A stretch of 39,336 bases of DNA from a phage. Positions 1,624 through 39,336 of the stretch are shown in pieces (within the stretch, counting starts at the first letter, position 1; every line of letters starts with the position of its first letter). The notes below the pieces were generated by a model, which saw only the letters and a list, made by a program, of their open reading frames with translations, searched no databases and was not told where the DNA came from. The position numbers and the translations under genes are program-made. The stretch lies in the sequence record PV991107.1; one strand, given 5' to 3'.

Positions 1624-3980
1624 TGCCACTAATTACTCAATCAATCAAGAACCTTAAGGGTGGCATTAGCCAACAGCCTGACATACTGAGGTTCTCAGAC
1701 CAAGGCGAGTCACAGGTTAACTGCTGGTCATCAGAGAGTGATGGCCTCCAGAAGCGTCCACCTACAGTCTTCAAGCGACGTCTTAACATCGACGTTGGGA
1801 GCAACCCTAAGTTCCACCTGATTAACCGTGATGAGCATGAGCAGTATTACATCGTGTTCAATGGGTCCAACATTCAGGTAGTTGACTTGAGTGGTAATCA
1901 ATACTCAGTGTCAGGTGCGGTAGAATACGTTACGTCCTCCAACCCACGAGATGACATCCGTGTCGTTACCGTGGCAGACTATACGTTCGTCGTTAACCGT
2001 AAGGTTGTCGTCAAAGGTGGAAGCGAGAAGTCACACTCTGGTTATAACCGCAAAGCACGAGCTTTAATTAACCTGCGTGGTGGGCAGTATGGTCGAACCC
2101 TTAAAGTGGGAATCAACGGTGGCGTTAAGGTCTCGCATAAGCTACCAGCAGGTAATGATGCCGAGAATGACCCACCTAAGGTGGACGCTCAAGCCATTGG
2201 TGCAGCTCTGAGAGACCTTCTTGTTGCTTCCTATCCTACCTTCACGTTTGACCTTGGGTCTGGCTTCCTGCTAATCACAGCTCCTTCAGGGACCGACATT
2301 AACTCAGTGGAGACGGAGGATGGCTACGCTAACCAGCTAATAAGCCCAGTCCTAGACACTGTGCAGACAATCTCTAAACTACCTCTTGCCGCTCCTAATG
2401 GGTATATCATTAAGATTCAAGGTGAAACAAACAGTAGCGCCGATGAATACTACGTGATGTATGACTCCAACACTAAGACGTGGAAGGAGACAGTGGAGCC
2501 GGGAGTTGTCACTGGGTTCGACAACACCACAATGCCACATGCTCTGGTAAGACAGTCTGACGGCTCCTTTGAGTTCAAGACTCTGGATTGGTCCAAGCGT
2601 GGTGCTGGTAACGATGACACAAACCCTATGCCTAGCTTCGTGGATGCTGCGATTAATGATGTGTTCTTCTACAGGAACAGGCTAGGGTTCTTGTCGGGTG
2701 AGAACGTAATCATGAGCCGTTCAGCCAGCTACTTTGCGTTCTTCCCTAAGAGTGTGGCGACACTGAGTGATGCTGATCCTATTGATGTAGCTGTAAGTCA
2801 CCCTCGAATCTCAATCCTTAAGTATGCCGTTCCGTTTAGCGAGCAGCTACTACTTTGGTCGGATGAGGTTCAGTTCGTGATGACAAGCTCTGGGGTCCTT
2901 ACCTCGAAGTCTATCCAGCTTGATGTAGGCTCAGAGTTTGCCCTAGGTGACAATGCCCGACCGTTCGCTGTAGGACGCTCAGTCTTCTTCTCAGCTCCTC
3001 GTGGGTCATTCACCAGTATTAAGCGATACTTCGCTGTAGCTGATGTATCTGATGTGAAGGATGCAGATGATACAACTGGTCACGTACTGTCCTACATCCC
3101 TAACGGGGTGTTTGATATTCAAGGTACAGGTACTGAGAACTACATCTGCGTCAACTCTACAGGTGCATACAACCGAATCTACATCTACAAGTTCTTGTTT
3201 AAGGACGGAGTACAGCTTCAAGCCTCTTGGTCACACTGGGAGTTCCCTAAAGATGATAAGATTCTGGCGTCTGCTTCTATTGGCTCTACCATGTTCATCG
3301 TTCGTCAGCACCAAGGAGGGGTAGACATTGAGCACCTTAAGTTCATCAAGGAGGCAACTGACTTCCCCTCAGAGCCATATAGACTACACATTGACTCCAA
3401 GGTGTCTATGGTAATTCCAATTGGCTCATATAATGCTGACACCTATAAGACTACGGTTGACATTGGTGCTGCTTATGGTGGCAACGCTCCGTCTCCCGGT
3501 CTGTACTATCTGATTGACAGTCAGGGTGCTTATGTGGACCTTGGGGACTTGTCCAGTATCTCTACTGTGATTACCCTCAACGGCGATTGGTCAGGACGTA
3601 CAGTGTTCATCGGACGGCCCTATCTGATGTCCTACAAGTTCTCACGGTTCCTGATTAAGATTGAAGATGATAGTGGCACTCAGTCTGAAGACACTGGTCG
3701 TCTACAGCTTCGTCGGGCTTGGGTCAACTACAAGGACACTGGCGCTCTGAGACTCATTGTCAGAAACGGTGAGCGGGAGTTCGTGAATACCTTCAACGGG
3801 TACACCCTTGGTCAGCAAACCATCGGTACTACAAACATTGGTGACGGGCAGTATCGATTCGCTATGAATGGTAACGCATTAACCACGAGTCTAACCTTAG
3901 AGTCCGACTATCCTACCCCAGTGTCCATCGTTGGGTGTGGCTGGGAGGCATCATACGCTAAGAAAGCTCGTTCAGTCTAA
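1623..3980 (+). CDS. Tail tubular protein B (T7 gene 12 homolog)
   Basis: 785-aa ORF, start overlaps gene 11 stop (TAATG); size and position match T7 gp12 (794 aa). Confidence 0.85.
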   Translation: MPLITQSIKNLKGGISQQPDILRFSDQGESQVNCWSSESDGLQKRPPTVFKRRLNIDVGSNPKFHLINRDEHEQYYIVFNGSNIQVVDLSGNQYSVSGAVEYVTSSNPRDDIRVVTVADYTFVVNRKVVVKGGSEKSHSGYNRKARALINLRGGQYGRTLKVGINGGVKVSHKLPAGNDAENDPPKVDAQAIGAALRDLLVASYPTFTFDLGSGFLLITAPSGTDINSVETEDGYANQLISPVLDTVQTISKLPLAAPNGYIIKIQGETNSSADEYYVMYDSNTKTWKETVEPGVVTGFDNTTMPHALVRQSDGSFEFKTLDWSKRGAGNDDTNPMPSFVDAAINDVFFYRNRLGFLSGENVIMSRSASYFAFFPKSVATLSDADPIDVAVSHPRISILKYAVPFSEQLLLWSDEVQFVMTSSGVLTSKSIQLDVGSEFALGDNARPFAVGRSVFFSAPRGSFTSIKRYFAVADVSDVKDADDTTGHVLSYIPNGVFDIQGTGTENYICVNSTGAYNRIYIYKFLFKDGVQLQASWSHWEFPKDDKILASASIGSTMFIVRQHQGGVDIEHLKFIKEATDFPSEPYRLHIDSKVSMVIPIGSYNADTYKTTVDIGAAYGGNAPSPGLYYLIDSQGAYVDLGDLSSISTVITLNGDWSGRTVFIGRPYLMSYKFSRFLIKIEDDSGTQSEDTGRLQLRRAWVNYKDTGALRLIVRNGEREFVNTFNGYTLGQQTIGTTNIGDGQYRFAMNGNALTTSLTLESDYPTPVSIVGCGWEASYAKKARSV

Positions 3981-14180: not shown

Positions 14181-14440
14181 CGCAGATGGACTTAGAGAAG
14201 TTCCTCTTAATGCTAGATACTGAACGTGCTCGACTCATGCTGCAAGACTTGCGGGATGACACTAAGCGTTCACCTCAGCTTTACAACGCCATTGAGAAGC
14301 TACTGGCTCGTCACAACTTTGTGTTAAGCAAGGTGTCTGTGGACGAGAAGACGCTGGCTGATATGGAGGCCCTGAACGCAGAGTACGATAAGGTGCTTTC
14401 AGCGACTGAGGATAATGACACCGGGTATGGTGTTCAATAA
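14177..14440 (+). CDS. Terminase small subunit / DNA maturase A (T7 gene 18 position)
   Basis: 87 aa (T7 gp18 89 aa); start overlaps holin stop (ATGA); synteny. Confidence 0.65.
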   Translation: MTQMDLEKFLLMLDTERARLMLQDLRDDTKRSPQLYNAIEKLLARHNFVLSKVSVDEKTLADMEALNAEYDKVLSATEDNDTGYGVQ

Positions 14441-14444
14441 GTGT

Positions 14445-14490
14445 TAGACTCAAGGTCATTACTATATGTAGTGGCCTTTATGGTTAACAC
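14445..14490 (+). promoter_or_regulatory. RNase III-like processing hairpin (R18.5-like), member of a 4-copy motif family
   Basis: TAGACTCAAGGTCATTACTATATGTAGTGGCCTTTATGGTTAACAC; shares GACTCAAGGTCAT...GTGGCCTTTATG core with sites at 19084, 23271, 30712. Confidence 0.5.
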
Positions 14491-14541
14491 TAACTAGTGG
14501 AGGCGACTCTACGTGAAATCTGATAAACCGGGAGGGCAACT

Positions 14542-17000: not shown

Positions 17001-17023
17001 ACTTAACTATCACTATAGGGAAG
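17001..17023 (+). promoter_or_regulatory. Phage RNAP promoter near right genome end (phiOR-like)
   Basis: ACTTAACTATCACTATAGGGAAG; consensus match -13 to +4. Confidence 0.75.
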
Positions 17024-17598: not shown

Positions 17599-17812
17599 TC
17601 TCACAGTTCAAGAACCTCAAGTCTCCCCCATAGGCCCTCTTTCAGTCAGACCAAAGGCCCTACCCGTTGCTGCTCCTTGCAGTCACAGCCAGTCTATCAT
17701 AAGGTTAGACCGATGGTCAAGACGTTAGGTCAACGATAGGTCTAGGCTATGGCTTAGGGAAGGACGATAGGTAGTGACTATGGGTCTGTCTCTGAGTCTC
17801 TATCTGTATAAC
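17599..17812 (+). repeat. Candidate direct terminal repeat (single collapsed copy) containing the genome left end
   Basis: Starts TCTCACAGT...CCCCCATAGG and ends ..GTCTGTCTCTGAGTCTCTATCTGTATAACC, paralleling the first and last bases of the T7 160-bp terminal repeat as I recall them; flanked on both sides by short-repeat arrays as in T7. Confidence 0.45.
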
Positions 17813-18191: not shown

Positions 18192-18221
18192 TTGACAAGA
18201 TGTACCGACTTAAAGTAGTAT
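18192..18221 (+). promoter_or_regulatory. Candidate host sigma70 early promoter (A2/A3-like)
   Basis: TTGACA - 18 nt - TAGTAT about 200 nt upstream of the first early gene. Confidence 0.4.
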
Positions 18222-18425: not shown

Positions 18426-18929
18426 ATGGAACGTAATGCTAATGCATACTATGAGCTGCTGGCTGCAACCGTTGAGGCATTTATCGAGCGTATTCAGTAC
18501 GACCACCTGACTCAAGATGATGACTACAGCGATGCGCTGCATGAAGTCGTAGACGGTCAAGTTCCGCACTATTACCACGAGATTTTCACGGTGATGGCTG
18601 CTGATGGCATAGACCACGAGTTCGAAGACTCTGGGCTGATGCCTGAAACCAAGGACGTAACGCGTATCCTACAAGCTCGCATCTATGAGGCGCTTTATAA
18701 CGATGTGTCTAATAGCTTGGATGTAGTCTGGTTTGAGGATGAAGAGGCAGACGAAGAGGATGAATATTGGGTAGTTGACGCTAAAACAGGCGAGATAATT
18801 GTGCAAGCTGTAGCTCTTGAGGTCGCTACTGCATGTGCCGAGGTCAACTATGCGGCAGGCCGCCACCTGAAGGTGGAAGACATCAATGATAACGTAGTGT
18901 TCGACCCTGCGGCTGAGGACTGCGAGTGA
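18426..18929 (+). CDS. ocr: Ocr-like DNA-mimic anti-restriction protein (T7 gene 0.3 homolog) with about 50-aa C-terminal extension
   Basis: ..[46 protein letters not shown].. matches the core of T7 Ocr as recalled; very acidic; 167 aa versus 117 aa in T7; SD GAGAGGA. Confidence 0.8.
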
Positions 18930-19083
18930 TGATAACTTACGGTTTATGCCAGCACCACGTCACCAACGCCAGGATTTTGGTCAAAACCGGGCGGTTAAAC
19001 CACGAGGAGGCCATGCGTCTCTTGAAAGTGGTCTACAGGAGACGCAAGCGCATACACGATAGTTTACACACTGAGTGATAGAC

Positions 19084-19123
19084 GAGAGGTCATCGACTGA
19101 TAGGTGGCCTCAAAGATTATCAC
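19084..19123 (+). promoter_or_regulatory. RNase III-like processing hairpin (R0.3-like)
   Basis: GAGAGGTCATCGACTGATAGGTGGCCTCAAAGATTATCAC; shares AGGTCAT...GTGGCCT core with the other three sites. Confidence 0.45.
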
Positions 19124-19144
19124 TTAAATTGATAGGAGTTAACT

Positions 19145-19312
19145 ATGAAATTTACAGGAATAGCACTTTACGTAACGATTATTATGGCGTGGCTGACTGC
19201 GGTATTCACTGATGGGAACGCATTACGACTAGGCTGGATGGCAGTGGATATTATCTTCTCTCCGGTAGGGGTCGTGCGGGGCACCTTGATGTGGTTTGGA
19301 TTGGCGGGATAA
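19145..19312 (+). CDS. Small membrane protein (55 aa), early region (gene 0.4-like position)
   Basis: ATG after AGGAG; MKFTGIALYVTIIMAWLTAVF.. predicted TM helix; coordinates hand-placed. Confidence 0.4.
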   Translation: MKFTGIALYVTIIMAWLTAVFTDGNALRLGWMAVDIIFSPVGVVRGTLMWFGLAG

Positions 19313-19400
19313 ACTATGAGTGTGGGATATTTGGTATGCCTGTCTCCGGTCATCTTTCTGATAGCTTGGGGATATACGATTGTATTAAACGGAAATCACT

Positions 19401-19598
19401 ATGAGTAGCACACTATTGATAGCCATAGGCTATGTACTTATCGCCTACGTGCTGGTGAGAGACATCAACAAGGCACGTAAAGTCTACAAATTCAACTATG
19501 TACGTATGGTCCGCTGGACTGTACGTCAACCTAACGGACGATTCCTGCGCAATTTAGCGAACGTCTGGGATATAGCAACTCTTGGGAGCAAACTGTAA
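19401..19598 (+). CDS. Small membrane-anchored early protein (65 aa)
   Basis: ORF track; N-terminal hydrophobic helix LLIAIGYVLIAYVLV then basic tail; stop overlaps next start (TAATG). Confidence 0.4.
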   Translation: MSSTLLIAIGYVLIAYVLVRDINKARKVYKFNYVRMVRWTVRQPNGRFLRNLANVWDIATLGSKL

Positions 19599-19924
19599 TG
19601 AACAAGTCATACGGGATTAATCTGGTACACTCTATGGACGCAGAAATGAACATGTTAAGCCTACTGGCTACCGGGTATCGTCACGGAACGTCAAGTCACA
19701 CCGCACGTCAACAGCAGGAGCGGGACCGTGTACTACAGGCGCGACTCCGGGCAGAGGGCCATAAGTCCGAACTGATGTGTCTGGCGTATGGCGGACGACC
19801 ACTAACAGACGATGGTAAACTTTTAGTCTCAGGCTGGAAGGCGATAGACCAGCGGTCAACCATCAAGCACACGACCAAAGGTGACTTCAGTCATCTTCAC
19901 GCTAACCCACTGATATGCAAGTAA
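19598..19924 (+). CDS. Hypothetical early protein (108 aa)
   Basis: ORF track; translationally coupled to upstream ORF; occupies the slot where T7 has the 0.7 protein kinase but is far too short to be a kinase. Confidence 0.45.
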   Translation: MNKSYGINLVHSMDAEMNMLSLLATGYRHGTSSHTARQQQERDRVLQARLRAEGHKSELMCLAYGGRPLTDDGKLLVSGWKAIDQRSTIKHTTKGDFSHLHANPLICK

Positions 19925-19929
19925 TTATG

Positions 19930-19952
19930 ACTTAACTATCACTATAGGACTC
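19930..19952 (+). promoter_or_regulatory. Phage RNAP promoter immediately upstream of the RNAP gene
   Basis: ACTTAACTATCACTATAGGACTC, same variant as the site at 17001; +1 about 19947, 75 nt upstream of the gene 1 ATG. Confidence 0.7.
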
Positions 19953-20021
19953 AAGGTCTAAGACTCCAAGTGAAAGACCAAAGAGACTCTAAGTGAAAGA
20001 CTAATAACAAGGACTTTAAGT

Positions 20022-22703
20022 ATGAGCGTCATCTCTATTGACAAACACGACTTCTCTGATGTGTCGAACGCCATTGAGCCGTTTAACCTGCTGGCTGACC
20101 ACTACGGGCAAGACCTTGCAGTCAAACAGCTTCAGCTTGAGCATGAGGCATATACAGAAGGCGAGCGACGTTTCATCAAGAACCTTGAGCGCCAGACCGA
20201 GCGCGGGGAACTGGCAGACAATCAGGTCGCCAAGCCTTTGATGCAGACTCTGGTGCCTGAGATTGCGCAAGCAGTCAAGGAGTGGCACGAAGGCCAAGAC
20301 GGGAAGCTGTCAACCTCTCGTCCTAGCGTAGCGTTCACCATGTTGAGCACTGAAGAGAAGGCCGTAAAGGACCGCTCTCTGCGCATCTCCTGTGAGTCTG
20401 CTGCGGTTATCATACTGAAGGTCATTCTCTCCAAGCTGGTCAAGCCTGAAGGGATACCGATTACACCGATGGCCTCCGCGATAGGTCGCACACTTGAGGA
20501 CGAAATCCGCTTCGGTCGCATCCGTGACAAAGAGAAAGAGCACTTCAAGAAGGCGATAGCTGATAACCTGAATAAGCGGGCCGGGGCGTCATACAAGAAA
20601 GCCTACATGCAAGCGGTCGAGGCGTCCATGCTGGAGCAAGGCCAACTGGAAGATGCGTGGGGGACTTGGAGTCCTACAGAGGCTGTCCACGTTGGCATCA
20701 AGATGCTCGAGATTGTCATCCAGTCAACACAACTGGTCGAGCTTAAGCGGTACGGTGCTGGTAATGCAGCGGCTGACGTAGAGATGGTCCACCTGTCAGA
20801 CTTCTGGGTCAAGAAGATGGCACAACGAGGATTCAGCCTTGCGGGTATCGCTCCAGTCTACCAGCCTTGCGTCGTTCCACCTAAGCCGTGGACTGGTGTC
20901 GTAGGTGGTGGGTACTGGGCCAAAGGTCGCAGACCGTTACCATTGATTCGCTTAGGGTCTAAGTCTGCGGTAGCACGTTATGAAGACGTATACATGCCTG
21001 AAGTCTATGACGCTGTGAACATCATTCAGAATACACCTTGGAAAGTTAACAAGAAGGTTCTGGACGTGGTGAACATGGTCGAGAAGCTGAACAACACGCC
21101 TATTGATGACATCCCTCAGATGGAGCCACTGAAGCCTGAGGACTATGCGGGTGAGACTGAAGAAGAACTCAAGGCATGGAAGAAGGCTGCTGCTGGTATC
21201 TATCGCCGCGAGAAGGCCAGACAGTCACGCAGATTATCACTGAGCTTTATCGTTAACCAAGCAAACAAGTTCTCTCAGTTCAAGGCCATCTGGTTCCCGT
21301 ACAACATGGATTGGCGAGGTCGTGTCTACGCTGTCCCGATGTTCAACCCTCAGGGTAACGACATGCAGAAGGGTCTACTGACTCTGGCGGTCGGAAAGCC
21401 TATCGGGGCGGATGGTTTCAAATGGCTTAAAGTCCACGGTGCAAACTGTGCGGGTGTCGATAAAGTCACCTTCGAGGAGCGCATCAAGTGGGTGGAAGAC
21501 AACCACGAAAACATCATGGCTGCTGCTAAGGCACCGATGGATAGTATTGAGTGGTGGGGCAAGTTAGACTCTCCGTTCTGTTTCCTCGCGTTCTGCTTCG
21601 AGTATGCTGGCGTAATGCACCACGGCCTGTCTTACTCCTGCTCGCTGCCGATAGCGTTCGATGGGTCCTGCTCTGGTATTCAGCACTTCAGTGCGATGCT
21701 TCGTGACCACATCGGTGGACATGCAGTAAACCTGACGCCATCCGGTAAGGTACAAGACATCTACCGCATTGTGTCTGACCGCATTGAGGAGGCGCTTAAA
21801 GTCCTGCTGGTTAACGGTACGGACAACGAGATGGTGACTCACGAGGACAAGAAAACTGGTGAGATTACCGAACGTCTCAAGCTGGGGACACGAGAGCTGG
21901 CCCGTCAGTGGCTGCAATTCGGTATGTCTCGCTCGGTCACTAAGCGTTCGGTCATGACTCTGGCCTACGGGTCGAAAGAGTATGGGTTCGCCGACCAAGT
22001 GTTCGAAGACACCGTGATGCCAGCGATTGACTCCGGTAAGGGAGCAATGTTCACCGAGCCAAGCCAAGCGTCTCGCTTCATGGCTAAGATGATTTGGGAA
22101 GCTGTGAGTGTGACAGTAGTTGCTGCGGTTGACGCGATGAAGTGGCTTCAAGGTGCCGCTAAGCTGCTGGCTGCTGAAGTGAAGGACAAGAAGACTGGTG
22201 AAATCCTGAAGCCATGCCTTCCGGTACACTGGGTCACACCTGATGGGTTCCCGGTCTGGCAGGAATACCGCAAGAAGGATACCACTCGTCTGAACCTGAT
22301 GTTCTTAGGGTCCTTCAACCTTCAACCTACGGTCAACAAAGGTACGAAGAAAGAGCTGGACAAGCACAAGCAGGAGTCAGGCATTAGCCCGAACTTCGTC
22401 CACTCACAAGATGGTAGCCACCTCCGCAAGACTGTAGTCCACACTCACCGAAAGTATGGCGTGATGTCATTCGCAGTGATTCACGATAGCTTCGGGACCA
22501 TCCCGGCTGACGCTGAGTATCTGTTCCGTGGCGTCCGTGAGACGATGGTAGAGACTTACCGCGATAACGATGTGCTGCTTGACTTCTACGAGCAGTTTGA
22601 ATACCAGCTTCATGAAAGTCAGCGCGACAAGTTGCCTGAGCTTCCGAAGAAAGGTAAACTGAATATCGAAGACATCTTGTCTTCAGACTTTGCATTCGCT
22701 TAA
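20022..22703 (+). CDS. Single-subunit DNA-directed RNA polymerase (T7 gene 1 homolog)
   Basis: 893 aa (T7 RNAP 883 aa); extensive similarity including C-terminal ..HDSFGTIPADA..VRETMV.TY..DFYEQF..QLHESQ.DK.P.LP.KG.LN..DIL.SDFAFA. Confidence 0.97.
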   Translation: MSVISIDKHDFSDVSNAIEPFNLLADHYGQDLAVKQLQLEHEAYTEGERRFIKNLERQTERGELADNQVAKPLMQTLVPEIAQAVKEWHEGQDGKLSTSRPSVAFTMLSTEEKAVKDRSLRISCESAAVIILKVILSKLVKPEGIPITPMASAIGRTLEDEIRFGRIRDKEKEHFKKAIADNLNKRAGASYKKAYMQAVEASMLEQGQLEDAWGTWSPTEAVHVGIKMLEIVIQSTQLVELKRYGAGNAAADVEMVHLSDFWVKKMAQRGFSLAGIAPVYQPCVVPPKPWTGVVGGGYWAKGRRPLPLIRLGSKSAVARYEDVYMPEVYDAVNIIQNTPWKVNKKVLDVVNMVEKLNNTPIDDIPQMEPLKPEDYAGETEEELKAWKKAAAGIYRREKARQSRRLSLSFIVNQANKFSQFKAIWFPYNMDWRGRVYAVPMFNPQGNDMQKGLLTLAVGKPIGADGFKWLKVHGANCAGVDKVTFEERIKWVEDNHENIMAAAKAPMDSIEWWGKLDSPFCFLAFCFEYAGVMHHGLSYSCSLPIAFDGSCSGIQHFSAMLRDHIGGHAVNLTPSGKVQDIYRIVSDRIEEALKVLLVNGTDNEMVTHEDKKTGEITERLKLGTRELARQWLQFGMSRSVTKRSVMTLAYGSKEYGFADQVFEDTVMPAIDSGKGAMFTEPSQASRFMAKMIWEAVSVTVVAAVDAMKWLQGAAKLLAAEVKDKKTGEILKPCLPVHWVTPDGFPVWQEYRKKDTTRLNLMFLGSFNLQPTVNKGTKKELDKHKQESGISPNFVHSQDGSHLRKTVVHTHRKYGVMSFAVIHDSFGTIPADAEYLFRGVRETMVETYRDNDVLLDFYEQFEYQLHESQRDKLPELPKKGKLNIEDILSSDFAFA

Positions 22704-23249: not shown

Positions 23250-23272
23250 CCTAAACTATCACTATAGGATTA
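23250..23272 (+). promoter_or_regulatory. Phage RNAP promoter (phi1.1-like)
   Basis: CCTAAACTATCACTATAGGATTA; consensus -16 to +2. Confidence 0.8.
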
Positions 23273-23312
23273 GACTCAAGGTCATGACTCAAAGTCGTGG
23301 CCTTCATGATTA
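23271..23312 (+). promoter_or_regulatory. RNase III-like processing hairpin (R1.1-like)
   Basis: TAGACTCAAGGTCATGACTCAAAGTCGTGGCCTTCATGATTA. Confidence 0.5.
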
Positions 23313-23342
23313 ACCCTAACTCATTCAATCAGGAGCTACACC

Positions 23343-24889: not shown

Positions 24890-24900
24890 CTAAACGTCAA

Positions 24901-24932
24901 CCCAGTGGTCTTCGGACTGCTGGGTTTCTTTG
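24901..24932 (+). terminator. Intrinsic terminator at the end of the early region (TE-like)
   Basis: CCCAGTGGTC-TTCG-GACTGCTGGG then TTTCTTTG; 10-bp stem (with G-U pairs), UUCG tetraloop, U-tract; same position as T7 TE (after gene 1.3). Confidence 0.7.
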
Positions 24933-26122: not shown

Positions 26123-26242
26123 ATGAACCAAGACCAGATTAACTTTGTGTGTCAGCTTATTAAGGAGTTCGTGGACTTCACTGATTTATCCGAAGAGGAA
26201 CTTGTTAAGCTGGAAGAGATTCTCGACAAGGAGGTTTTATGA
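26123..26242 (+). CDS. Small acidic hypothetical protein (39 aa)
   Basis: ORF-track frame 26045-26242 trimmed to ATG preceded by GGAAGGAG at 8-nt spacing. Confidence 0.35.
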
Positions 26243-26397
26243 CTGAGGTTGAGAAGAAGTACATCGTGGAGCTTGAGGGACGCGTTCAGTCCTTCGAGGT
26301 TCCGTTGTACGCAAAGTCTCTTGAAGAGGCTACCCTGAAGTCCCAAGAGTATGAGGACGCTGGTTTTGTGGTCGGTCGGATTCGTCCTGAGGCCTAA
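26239..26397 (+). CDS. Host RNA polymerase inhibitor (T7 gene 2 / Gp2 homolog)
   Basis: 52 aa; ..[14 protein letters not shown]......[10 protein letters not shown] matches T7 Gp2 (..SFEVPIYAETLDEA......AGFEVTRVRP) as recalled; below ORF-track cutoff. Confidence 0.75.
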
Positions 26398-27605: not shown

Positions 27606-28075
27606 TGACTCAGAAATATAGACTTAAAGTTAGCATCTACGGGTGGCCTAAAGGTACTATCGTCACAAAATGTGCGAAAGACCCTGTACCAGTGCCTGGA
27701 CTTGTTCTGGTGGAATCCACTGAGCGTGGCCTCTACAAGCACGGAGCAGCGGGGAATAACAGTCAGCCTGACGGAATGTGGGGGGCATGGGTTTCAAATG
27801 AATATCTTGAGGAAATTGTAGAGGATAAACCTCAAGTCCTGCCAGCCTCAAGCGTCCCTCCTGTCACCGTTAAACGTGAAGTCCTGACCATCGACAAGAT
27901 TGGTGTAGGCCAGACGTTCATCGTCCACGGGAAGCCTGAAGAAGTTTACGTGAAGATTAGCAACTCACACGTCTTCAACCATAAGCGTCTCCAGATGCAC
28001 ACCACGGACGCACAGCGCTTCACCCAGCACCTGAATCTAGTGGTCGTAGAATTGGTGGTGTACAATGGTAAGTAA
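27602..28075 (+). CDS. Hypothetical protein (157 aa) inserted between endonuclease I and amidase
   Basis: ORF track; ATGA-coupled to gene 3; 157 stop-free codons; no T7 gene at this position. Confidence 0.55.
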   Translation: MMTQKYRLKVSIYGWPKGTIVTKCAKDPVPVPGLVLVESTERGLYKHGAAGNNSQPDGMWGAWVSNEYLEEIVEDKPQVLPASSVPPVTVKREVLTIDKIGVGQTFIVHGKPEEVYVKISNSHVFNHKRLQMHTTDAQRFTQHLNLVVVELVVYNGK

Positions 28076-28523
28076 GGTACAGTTCAACCCACGGTCCCGG
28101 ACTGACGCTATCTTCGTTCACTGTTCGGCTACCAAGCCAGAGATGGACATCGGGGTAGAGACCATCCGTATGTGGCACAAGCAGCAAGGATGGCTGGACG
28201 TAGGCTACCACTTTATCATCAAACGTGATGGCACTGTGGAAGAGGGTCGCCCGGTCAATGTCGTAGGGTCACACGTTAAGGACTGGAACTCCAAGTCCGT
28301 AGGCGTCTGCCTTGTAGGTGGAATTGACGCTAAGGGCAAGTTTGAAGCTAACTTCACTCCGGCCCAGATGAATTCACTGCGCAACAAGCTGGCTGACCTG
28401 AAGGCCCTGTATCCTCAGGCAGAAATAAAAGCACACCATGATGTAGCACCTAAGGCGTGTCCAAGTTTCGACTTGCAGCGCTGGCTATCTACCAATGAAC
28501 TGGTAACTTCCGACCGTGGTTAA
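28065..28523 (+). CDS. N-acetylmuramoyl-L-alanine amidase / T7 lysozyme (gene 3.5 homolog)
   Basis: 152 aa; ..TDAIFVHCSATKP...WHK.QGWLDVGYHFIIKRDGTVE.GR...VGSH.K..N..S.GVCLVGGID.KGKF.ANFTPAQM.SLR......AHH.VAPKACPSFDL.RW...NELVTSDRG nearly collinear with T7 gp3.5. Confidence 0.95.
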   Translation: MVSKVQFNPRSRTDAIFVHCSATKPEMDIGVETIRMWHKQQGWLDVGYHFIIKRDGTVEEGRPVNVVGSHVKDWNSKSVGVCLVGGIDAKGKFEANFTPAQMNSLRNKLADLKALYPQAEIKAHHDVAPKACPSFDLQRWLSTNELVTSDRG

Positions 28524-28547: not shown

Positions 28548-28763
28548 ATGATTAAACTTATCGAATTTCTTGGTCGTCTGGTGGTGCGTGGTTATCGTCG
28601 TGCTGCGGTTATGGAACGAAAGGTAGAAAAGAAGACTGCTGACAGTGCGGCTGATGCAGCTGCTCTGGCTGACAAGCTGACCATCGCGTCACTGGAAGCT
28701 GGCATGAAGGCACGTCAAGCTGACACCAAAGCTGACCAGTTGGCTCAGTTCTTCAAAGCCTAA
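28548..28763 (+). CDS. Hypothetical Ala-rich coiled-coil protein (71 aa; T7 gene 3.8 position but not HNH-like)
   Basis: ORF track; SD AAGGAG; no HNH motifs. Confidence 0.45.
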   Translation: MIKLIEFLGRLVVRGYRRAAVMERKVEKKTADSAADAAALADKLTIASLEAGMKARQADTKADQLAQFFKA

Positions 28764-30543: not shown

Positions 30544-30708
30544 TTGCTAAGAAAACTTAAAGCTCGCTACCATCGGTTCATGTACAAATGGTGGAGTGAT
30601 GAAGCAACCTGCCTGTCCAACATTCTGGGAGACCAGAGGTTCGACTCTAAGGCATGGAAGAAAGCTAACCGGAAGTTTATGTATCACTTCTTGCGTACAG
30701 ACTTCTAG
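30544..30708 (+). CDS. Small basic hypothetical protein (about 54 aa, TTG start) between primase-helicase and DNA polymerase
   Basis: ORF-track frame 30511-30708 begins inside gene 4; trimmed to TTG preceded by AAGGAGG. Confidence 0.3.
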   Translation: MLRKLKARYHRFMYKWWSDEATCLSNILGDQRFDSKAWKKANRKFMYHFLRTDF

Positions 30709-30711
30709 GTC

Positions 30712-30754
30712 TAGACTCAAGGTCATTCACATCGAGTGGCCTTTATGATTAGAC
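30712..30754 (+). promoter_or_regulatory. RNase III-like processing hairpin (R4.7-like)
   Basis: TAGACTCAAGGTCATTCACATCGAGTGGCCTTTATGATTAGAC. Confidence 0.5.
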
Positions 30755-30771
30755 TAAACGGAGGATTAACC

Positions 30772-38845: not shown

Positions 38846-38868
38846 ACTAAACTATCACTATAGGGAGA
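38846..38868 (+). promoter_or_regulatory. Phage RNAP promoter (phi10-like, perfect consensus)
   Basis: ACTAAACTATCACTATAGGGAGA followed by leader GGGAGACC...GGTTTCCC and a long untranslated leader to the capsid ATG. Confidence 0.85.
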
Positions 38869-38970
38869 CCAAGAGACAGACTCAAGGTTTCCCTATTACT
38901 TCAGTCCATACGGATTGGGCGTACAGCAAGTAATAAACTTTATCTTTCAATTGAATAGGAGAATTATCAT

Positions 38971-39336
38971 ATGGCAAACGTTCCGGGTCAGAAATTAGGT
39001 ACAGACCAAGGTAAAGGCAAATCTGGTTCCGACGCTCTGGCGTTGTTCCTGAAGGTCTTTGCTGGCGAAGTCCTGACCGCATTCACTCGCCGCTCTGTAA
39101 CTGCTGACAAGCATATTGTCCGTACAATTCAGAACGGTAAGTCTGCTCAGTTCCCGGTCATGGGTCGCACCTCTGGTGTGTATCTGGCTCCGGGTGAGCG
39201 ACTGTCCGATAAGCGTAAAGGTATCAAACATACCGAGAAAGTAATTACCATTGATGGTCTGCTGACTGCCGATGTGATGATTTTCGACATTGAAGACGCG
39301 ATGAACCACTATGACGTGGCTGGTGAGTATTCCAAC
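38971..39336 (+). CDS. Major capsid protein (gene 10A), N-terminal 122 codons, truncated by window end
   Basis: AGGAG - 9 nt - ATG; ..LALFLKVFAGEVLTAF.R.SVT...H.VR.I..GKSAQFPV.GRT...YLAPGE.L.DKRK.IKHTEKVITIDGLLTADV.I.DIEDAMNHYDV..EY.. nearly identical in pattern to T7 gp10A N-terminus. Confidence 0.95.
   Translation, partial: MANVPGQKLGTDQGKGKSGSDALALFLKVFAGEVLTAFTRRSVTADKHIVRTIQNGKSAQFPVMGRTSGVYLAPGERLSDKRKGIKHTEKVITIDGLLTADVMIFDIEDAMNHYDVAGEYSN

Follow-up and report, generated by a model that had tools for sequence, protein, structure and literature searches.

The stretch of phage DNA analyzed here (sequence record PV991107.1), hereafter the window, is 39,336 nucleotides (nt) long, and the element in question is a phage-type promoter that lies 75 nt upstream of gene 1, the gene for the phage's single-subunit RNA polymerase (RNAP). 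This site (positions 19930–19952) is almost certainly a genuine promoter, and it probably lets the RNAP raise its own production. We consider the full mechanism—a functional cognate promoter and a gene 1 that is self-amplified through it—to be likely. The promoter is already known, being annotated in phages EcoDS1, PE3-1, and CR8, and the feedback idea has been published for phage LUZ100. The features on which the argument turns are as follows, with promoter positions in T7-style numbering.

19930–19952, + strand: phage-RNAP promoter upstream of gene 1 (−17 to +6), ACTTAACTATCACTATAGGACTC
19947–20021, + strand: 75-nt leader of the predicted phage-RNAP transcript, 64% purine
20009–20013, + strand: Shine-Dalgarno-like AAGGA, 8 nt before the gene 1 ATG
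20022–22703, + strand: gene 1, single-subunit RNAP, 893 amino acids (aa)
19598–19924, + strand: upstream open reading frame (ORF), gp0.38-like by position, with its stop codon 5 nt before the promoter
23250–23272, + strand: phi1.1, the next phage promoter and a comparison site, followed by an RNase III-like hairpin (23266–23317)
17001–17023, + strand: phiOR promoter

A first-pass annotation of this DNA had proposed a near-consensus phage promoter with its +1 at about 19947, 75 nt before the gene 1 ATG, and both the position and the score of the site bear this out. Specifically, +1 falls on G19947 and the ATG on 20022, and the 23-mer ACTTAACTATCACTATAGGACTC, with up to three mismatches allowed, occurs twice in the window vs. 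not once in 100 dinucleotide shuffles. The exact core CACTATAG with extended consensus marks nine sites, all on the + strand, to which a position matrix adds two slightly degenerate ones (phi2.5 at 26393 and phi4 at 28759). All 11 score at least 24.7 bits, on the + strand only (the next best match reaches 14.8 bits), and all sit where the EcoDS1 annotation puts them. In a leave-one-out test, where a matrix trained on the other ten promoters scored 78,628 positions, the gene 1 promoter received 31.6 bits (25.2–36.2 for the other ten); just 11 of these positions exceeded 20 bits, every one a promoter, and the best non-promoter position reached 15.8. The site also shares the gene-end position of the promoter group, with an ORF stop codon 5 nt before it and then AAGGA and an ATG downstream. 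It equals phiOR (17001) base for base from −17 to +2 and starts with GGA, as do phi1.1, phi1.6, and phi2.5, while phi10 differs with GGGAGA. At position −17 the set divides into an ACT... class (the gene 1 promoter, phi6.5, phi10, phi17, and phiOR) and a CCT... class (phi1.1, phi1.6, phi2.5, phi4, phi9, and phi13).

The placement of this promoter is conserved well beyond the window. The 4 kb around it are 94–96% identical to many Kayfunavirus (K1F-like, Studiervirinae) genomes, and in 24 relatives from IMG/VR, with N-terminal RNAP identities of 71–99%, a promoter precedes gene 1 by 75–102 nt. When the survey was extended to 80 loci, a cognate promoter stood 75–102 nt before gene 1 in 22 of the 22 IMG/VR loci whose RNAP identity was at least 79%. 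Among GenBank phage records, 220 contain a full-length match to the 116-nt promoter-plus-leader segment, with an identity of at least 95% in 170. Constraint was assessed on 26 distinct sequences of relatives. In these, the promoter core (−13 to +2) varies at 4 of its 15 positions—mostly through lineage-wide specificity switches—and the block from the Shine-Dalgarno sequence to the ATG at 2 of 18, vs. all five nt that separate the upstream stop codon from the promoter and about 60% of positions in the flanking coding sequence and leader.

The bases of the site also follow the polymerase that is expected to read them. The gene 1 product, 98.5% identical to K1F gp1 and 64% to T7 RNAP, carries the specificity-loop triad N/N/Q at T7 positions 748/756/758. 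Across relatives the specificity bases (−12 to −8) match the loop of each phage's own RNAP, and three classes co-vary. K1F-type genomes, with loop residues N/N/Q, have AACTATCAC at both the gene 1 promoter and phi1.1; GW1-type genomes (L025, L030, and L028, which is Cronobacter phage GW1) have D/R/Q and AAACCCTCAC at both promoters, which we take to be the T3 combination of residues and bases; and CR8 (L027/L057) has K at 748 and AGGTACAC at both. K11 likewise has K at 748 and GG at −11/−10. In relatives whose RNAPs are 79–89% identical, specificity has moved to the T3-like ACCCTCAC or to GGTACAC, and residues 748/756 have changed to match. That the gene 1 site tracks the polymerase through three specificity classes indicates that it is used as a promoter, and positional conservation and co-variation together provide, at the level of sequence comparison, strong evidence for promoter function. 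Biochemical data exist for a relative: purified Ro45lw RNAP transcribes in vitro from ACTTAACTATCACTATAGGGA (PMC12272871), which agrees with the gene 1 promoter at every position from −17 to +2. Ro45lw is locus L022 of our survey, and its sister locus, L021, encodes an RNAP with 93% identity to the one here.

For self-amplification, transcription from this site has to reach gene 1. The cognate promoter precedes the RNAP gene on the same strand, and no terminator-like site was found between the two. Given a real cognate promoter 5′ of gene 1 and no terminator, transcription of its own gene by the phage RNAP is a natural consequence, and self-amplified gene 1 transcription is plausible from the sequence. 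We infer the size of this feedback and the in vivo steps of the mechanism, in which the following additional features would take part.

18192–18221, + strand: sigma-70-type early promoter TTGACA-18-TAGTAT, from a consensus scan, homologous to the EcoDS1 host promoter at 609–647
About 18051: second sigma-70-type promoter, by homology to EcoDS1 469–505
24899–24926, + strand: intrinsic-terminator-like hairpin after the ligase gene, counterpart of TE in EcoDS1 and end of the host-RNAP early unit
26239–26397, + strand: gp2-like inhibitor of host RNAP (PF16857)
28065–28523, + strand: gp3.5-like amidase/lysozyme (PF01510)

The sigma-70 promoters that the first-pass annotation had placed near 18.05–18.22 kb are thus present, one by scan and one by homology. 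Judging by annotated relatives, host RNAP would start there and read through ocr, the small early genes, and gene 1 before stopping at TE (24.9 kb). The first phage RNAP would then bind 19930–19952 and initiate at G19947. The resulting mRNA would comprise an unstructured leader of 75 nt, the AAGGA site, and gene 1, and would run on into genes 1.1–1.3 and the DNA-metabolism genes. The gp2-like protein would end host-driven transcription of gene 1, which would from then on act as a class II-type gene—self-amplified and, after this shut-down, independent of host RNAP. By analogy with T7, the loop would presumably be curbed by competition from the late promoters and by the gp3.5-like lysozyme, a putative brake on phage RNAP.

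Prior annotation agrees with this layout in the closest relatives. The homologous site is listed as “promoter phi” at 2244–2266 in Escherichia phage EcoDS1 (NC_011042 / EU734172) and as “promoter” in PE3-1 (KJ748011), and K1F (NC_007456) has the identical promoter sequence, unannotated, at 2474–2496. All three place the site in the interval from gp0.38 to gene 1, with 96.6–98.3% identity to our sequence over the 116-nt promoter-plus-leader segment; the differences are single-base changes in the leader, and where annotated the promoter is a predicted feature. The remaining promoters are likewise those of the EcoDS1 map (phi1.1, 1.6, 2.5, 4, 6.5, 9, 10, 13, 17, and OR). Citrobacter phage CR8 (Caroctavirus, NC_023548) has a “predicted promoter” at 3356–3378, the same order of 0.38, promoter, and gene 1, and no annotated phiOL (the leftmost promoter of T7), but differs in its specificity bases, AAGGAAGGTACACTATAGG, which match a different RNAP loop, and in its leader of 102 nt. 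In a kayfunavirus paper of 2026 (PMC13298934), the same promoter repeat is given for the 3′ end of the gene that comes just before the one for RNAP. The feature table of Ro45lw holds no promoter before gene 1, the first one listed coming after the gene (Ro45lw paper).

Base 1 of both K1F and EcoDS1 aligns at window position 17599, which places the physical left end near 17599 and indicates that the window is a circularly permuted assembly. The terminal repeat is present in a single copy, and the window junction (1–634 / 38846–39336) apparently falls inside the major capsid gene, with phi10 at 38846 and the reading frame seemingly resumed at the window start. From ocr (18426–18929) to gene 1 (window 18426–20022), the gp0.38-like ORF is the only one of at least 80 aa, and there is no ORF of the size of the gene 0.7 kinase; the gp0.38-like ORF (19598–19924) gave no Pfam match. 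CR8, with the same gene-1-proximal promoter, does have a short 0.7 gene.

Two systems outside this group share the proposed circuit. In Pseudomonas phage LUZ100, ONT-cappable-seq mapped a phage-specific promoter, phi1, directly 5′ of the RNAP gene, and in the published model the first phage RNAP, a product of host transcription, goes on to boost transcription of its own gene (Putzeys et al., 2023; PMC10134795). However, the LUZ100 start site was mapped experimentally, and there phi1 is coupled to a MarR-like repressor and an integrase module, the phage being possibly temperate (PMC10134795). No regulator of the LUZ100 type was seen between the left end and gene 1 in our window, where only ocr and the gp0.38-like ORF reach 80 aa. 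The circuit logic—a cognate promoter directly driving the RNAP gene—is also that of the T7 “autogene,” reportedly made by Dubendorff and Studier in 1991 by cloning gene 1 behind a T7 promoter. Later uses of it are also reported (PMC6395690; PMC1500874). The autogene was engineered and needed external repression for stability, whereas the arrangement here is natural and belongs to a lytic cycle of minutes.

The contrast with T7 requires correction. The first-pass annotation held that the first phage promoter of T7 lies downstream of gene 1, which is wrong: in the T7 record, nt 405 is annotated as phiOL, a T7 promoter that precedes both A1–A3 and gene 1, and phiOL is annotated upstream of gene 1 in K11 (479–501) and BA14 (353–375) as well. 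(SP6, whose record is without regulatory annotation, was left out of this comparison.) T7-like, Berlin-like, and K11-like contigs have a cognate promoter 0.6–4.8 kb before gene 1, typically around −2.5 to −2.9 kb; a k-mer count gave CACTATTGG or CACTAATGG as the Berlin-type promoter core. To have a phage promoter ahead of gene 1 is therefore the rule in the subfamily, and what is peculiar to Kayfunavirus and Caroctavirus is the absence of phiOL combined with a first promoter that lies 75–102 nt from gene 1 and has a full-consensus core. In our window, a matrix scan found no phage promoter between the left end at 17599 and 19930, so that the phiOL-type position is vacant and the gene 1 promoter is the leftmost phage promoter, 2.33 kb right of the left end; no phiOL is annotated in the EcoDS1 and CR8 records either. 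It shares with the phiOL of T7, K11, and BA14 its rightward orientation and its place as the first phage promoter from the left, ahead of gene 1, so that transcription of the polymerase's own gene is possible in principle from both. However, phiOL stands between the terminal repeat and the host promoters, approximately 2.5–2.8 kb before gene 1, and the promoter here stands at 75 nt with a full-consensus core. Directly 5′ of gene 1, the T7/T3-type loci examined have an R1-type RNase III hairpin (...AGGTCATCTGCGGGTGGCCTGAATAGGTA...) and no promoter. Among individual contigs, the T3-like L103 has cognate promoters at −1569 and −617, much nearer gene 1 than the usual phiOL, and the T7-type L100 carries a tandem array of a 21-bp unit (AGGAACCACTGAG...), 11 copies in all, some 1.3–1.55 kb upstream of gene 1.

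This comparison raises the alternative that the promoter is functional but was selected mainly as the first phage promoter, i.e., as a relocated equivalent of phiOL. Its role would then be to let the faster phage RNAP take over from the host enzyme in genome internalization and class II transcription, gene 1 being just the first gene transcribed from it and self-amplification a side effect. In keeping with this, it is the leftmost phage promoter, no phiOL-type site lies between 17599 and the host promoters, and EcoDS1 and CR8 annotate none. Moreover, T7-like, Berlin-like, and K11-like relatives have phiOL and lack a gene-1-proximal promoter, so it seems that a genome has one arrangement or the other. 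A passage in PMC6171733, citing Garcia and Molineux (1995), credits phiOL with directing RNAP-mediated genome entry. The identity of the gene 1 promoter with phiOR from −17 to +2 can also be read in favor of such a role. Yet the T7 genome enters over roughly its first 850 bp without transcription, and a promoter at 2.33 kb lies beyond that stretch and would be unable to do the end-of-genome job of phiOL, while the tight and conserved coupling to the gene 1 ribosome site (75–102 nt leader) suggests that gene 1 expression matters. The relocation idea is, besides, compatible with autoregulation, as every transcript from the site includes gene 1. As the main reason for the promoter's existence, we judge it unlikely.

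Several points nonetheless weigh against self-amplification of gene 1. A conserved promoter is no proof of selection on gene 1 expression, since the transcript also feeds the downstream class II genes. The strength of the promoter could be modest, as its transcript begins with GGACTC instead of GGGAGA, and the assays of the Ro45lw minimal promoter used GGGA (PMC12272871). In the Ro45lw sub-lineage (six loci: L021–L024, L026, and L031), the promoter 81 nt upstream of gene 1 reads CACTAAAGG, with a T-to-A change at −2, and phi1.1 of these genomes retains CACTATAGG; the change thus affects the gene 1 promoter only and suggests that full strength is not always selected. The Ro45lw-type gene 1 promoter may be a tuned-down version. 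Finally, a literature search for transcript data from kayfunaviruses or K1F returned nothing usable; a K1B4 transcriptome paper deals with an unrelated phage.

A second alternative—that the leader is an RNase III processing site equivalent to R1 and the region mainly an mRNA-processing signal—we regard as very improbable. It starts from a likeness noted in the first-pass annotation between the sequence just downstream of the promoter and the 5′ half of the RNase III-like sites, and that likeness is real: GACTCAAGGTC at 19948–19958 reproduces exactly the 11-mer with which the hairpins at 14447, 23273, and 30714 begin. These three RNase III-like hairpins (14440–14491, 23266–23317, and 30707–30755) have the form GACTCAAGGTC...GTGGCCTTTATGATTA and fold at −19 to −23 kcal/mol, with z-scores of −3.2 to −4.2. 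T7-type relatives, moreover, have their R1-type hairpin directly 5′ of gene 1, and a weak GGUCU/AGACC hairpin can be drawn in our leader. The likeness goes no further. With up to three mismatches, the 3′ half GTGGCCTTTATGATTA is absent from the leader, its matches in the window being confined to 14471, 19104, 23297, and 30736; the leader folds no better than shuffled sequence (−9 to −12 kcal/mol, z-scores of −0.07 to −0.44); and the consensus fold of ten relatives reaches −2.06 kcal/mol with zero compensatory pairs. A T7-type RNase III site is a hairpin of roughly 45–60 nt made up of a lower stem, an internal loop, and an upper stem. Lacking the 3′ half, a fold above background, and any kept pairs, the leader was rejected both as an RNase III site and as a conserved structure.

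Further observations were made on the leader and its surroundings. The leader contains a direct repeat, AGACTC(C/T)AAGTGAAAGAC, at 19961–19978 and 19984–20001 (17 of 18 positions identical), and four AGAC motifs in all; related AAGACT/TAAGT motifs recur in CR8 and Ro45lw-type leaders. The match to the 3′ half at 19104–19119, in the early region, is a weaker fourth one with three mismatches. A scan of the + strand found no sigma-70-type promoter within the leader that could be an analog of the T7 minor promoter C (3113). An origin-like AT-rich tract past the promoter was also considered and rejected, as the first 75 nt are 39% G+C, inside the 36–53% range of the other ten promoters.

That the match is a chance occurrence or a decaying, inactive promoter copy, for which the −2 variant of one sub-lineage might be cited, is hardly credible given its absence from the shuffles, its unchanged placement in every relative and across the 220 records, its co-variation with the RNAP loop through three classes, and a core more conserved than its flanks.

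Self-amplification of gene 1 from a genuine cognate promoter is thus the reading we favor, and the finding is in itself an ordinary, genus-conserved one whose weight lies mainly in correct annotation. It does illustrate that the textbook T7 layout, where gene 1 is purely a host-transcribed early gene, is not universal even in close relatives. Tentatively, and with confidence that stops just short of an even call, we suggest that in Kayfunavirus and Caroctavirus the leftmost phage promoter has left the genome end (phiOL) and now occupies the place of the T7-type R1 site, and that gene 1 has thereby become a strongly self-amplified class II gene. If so, polymerase supply would become independent of host RNAP soon after infection, and early kinetics would differ from the T7 paradigm. 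K1F-type phages are used in phage therapy and engineering, and K1F-type RNAP/promoter pairs serve as orthogonal parts. If polymerase supply feeds back on itself in such phages, this would bear both on infection kinetics and on any refactoring of their genomes. For the evolution of the group, three promoter specificities at one fixed site represent a clean natural example of polymerase–promoter co-evolution.

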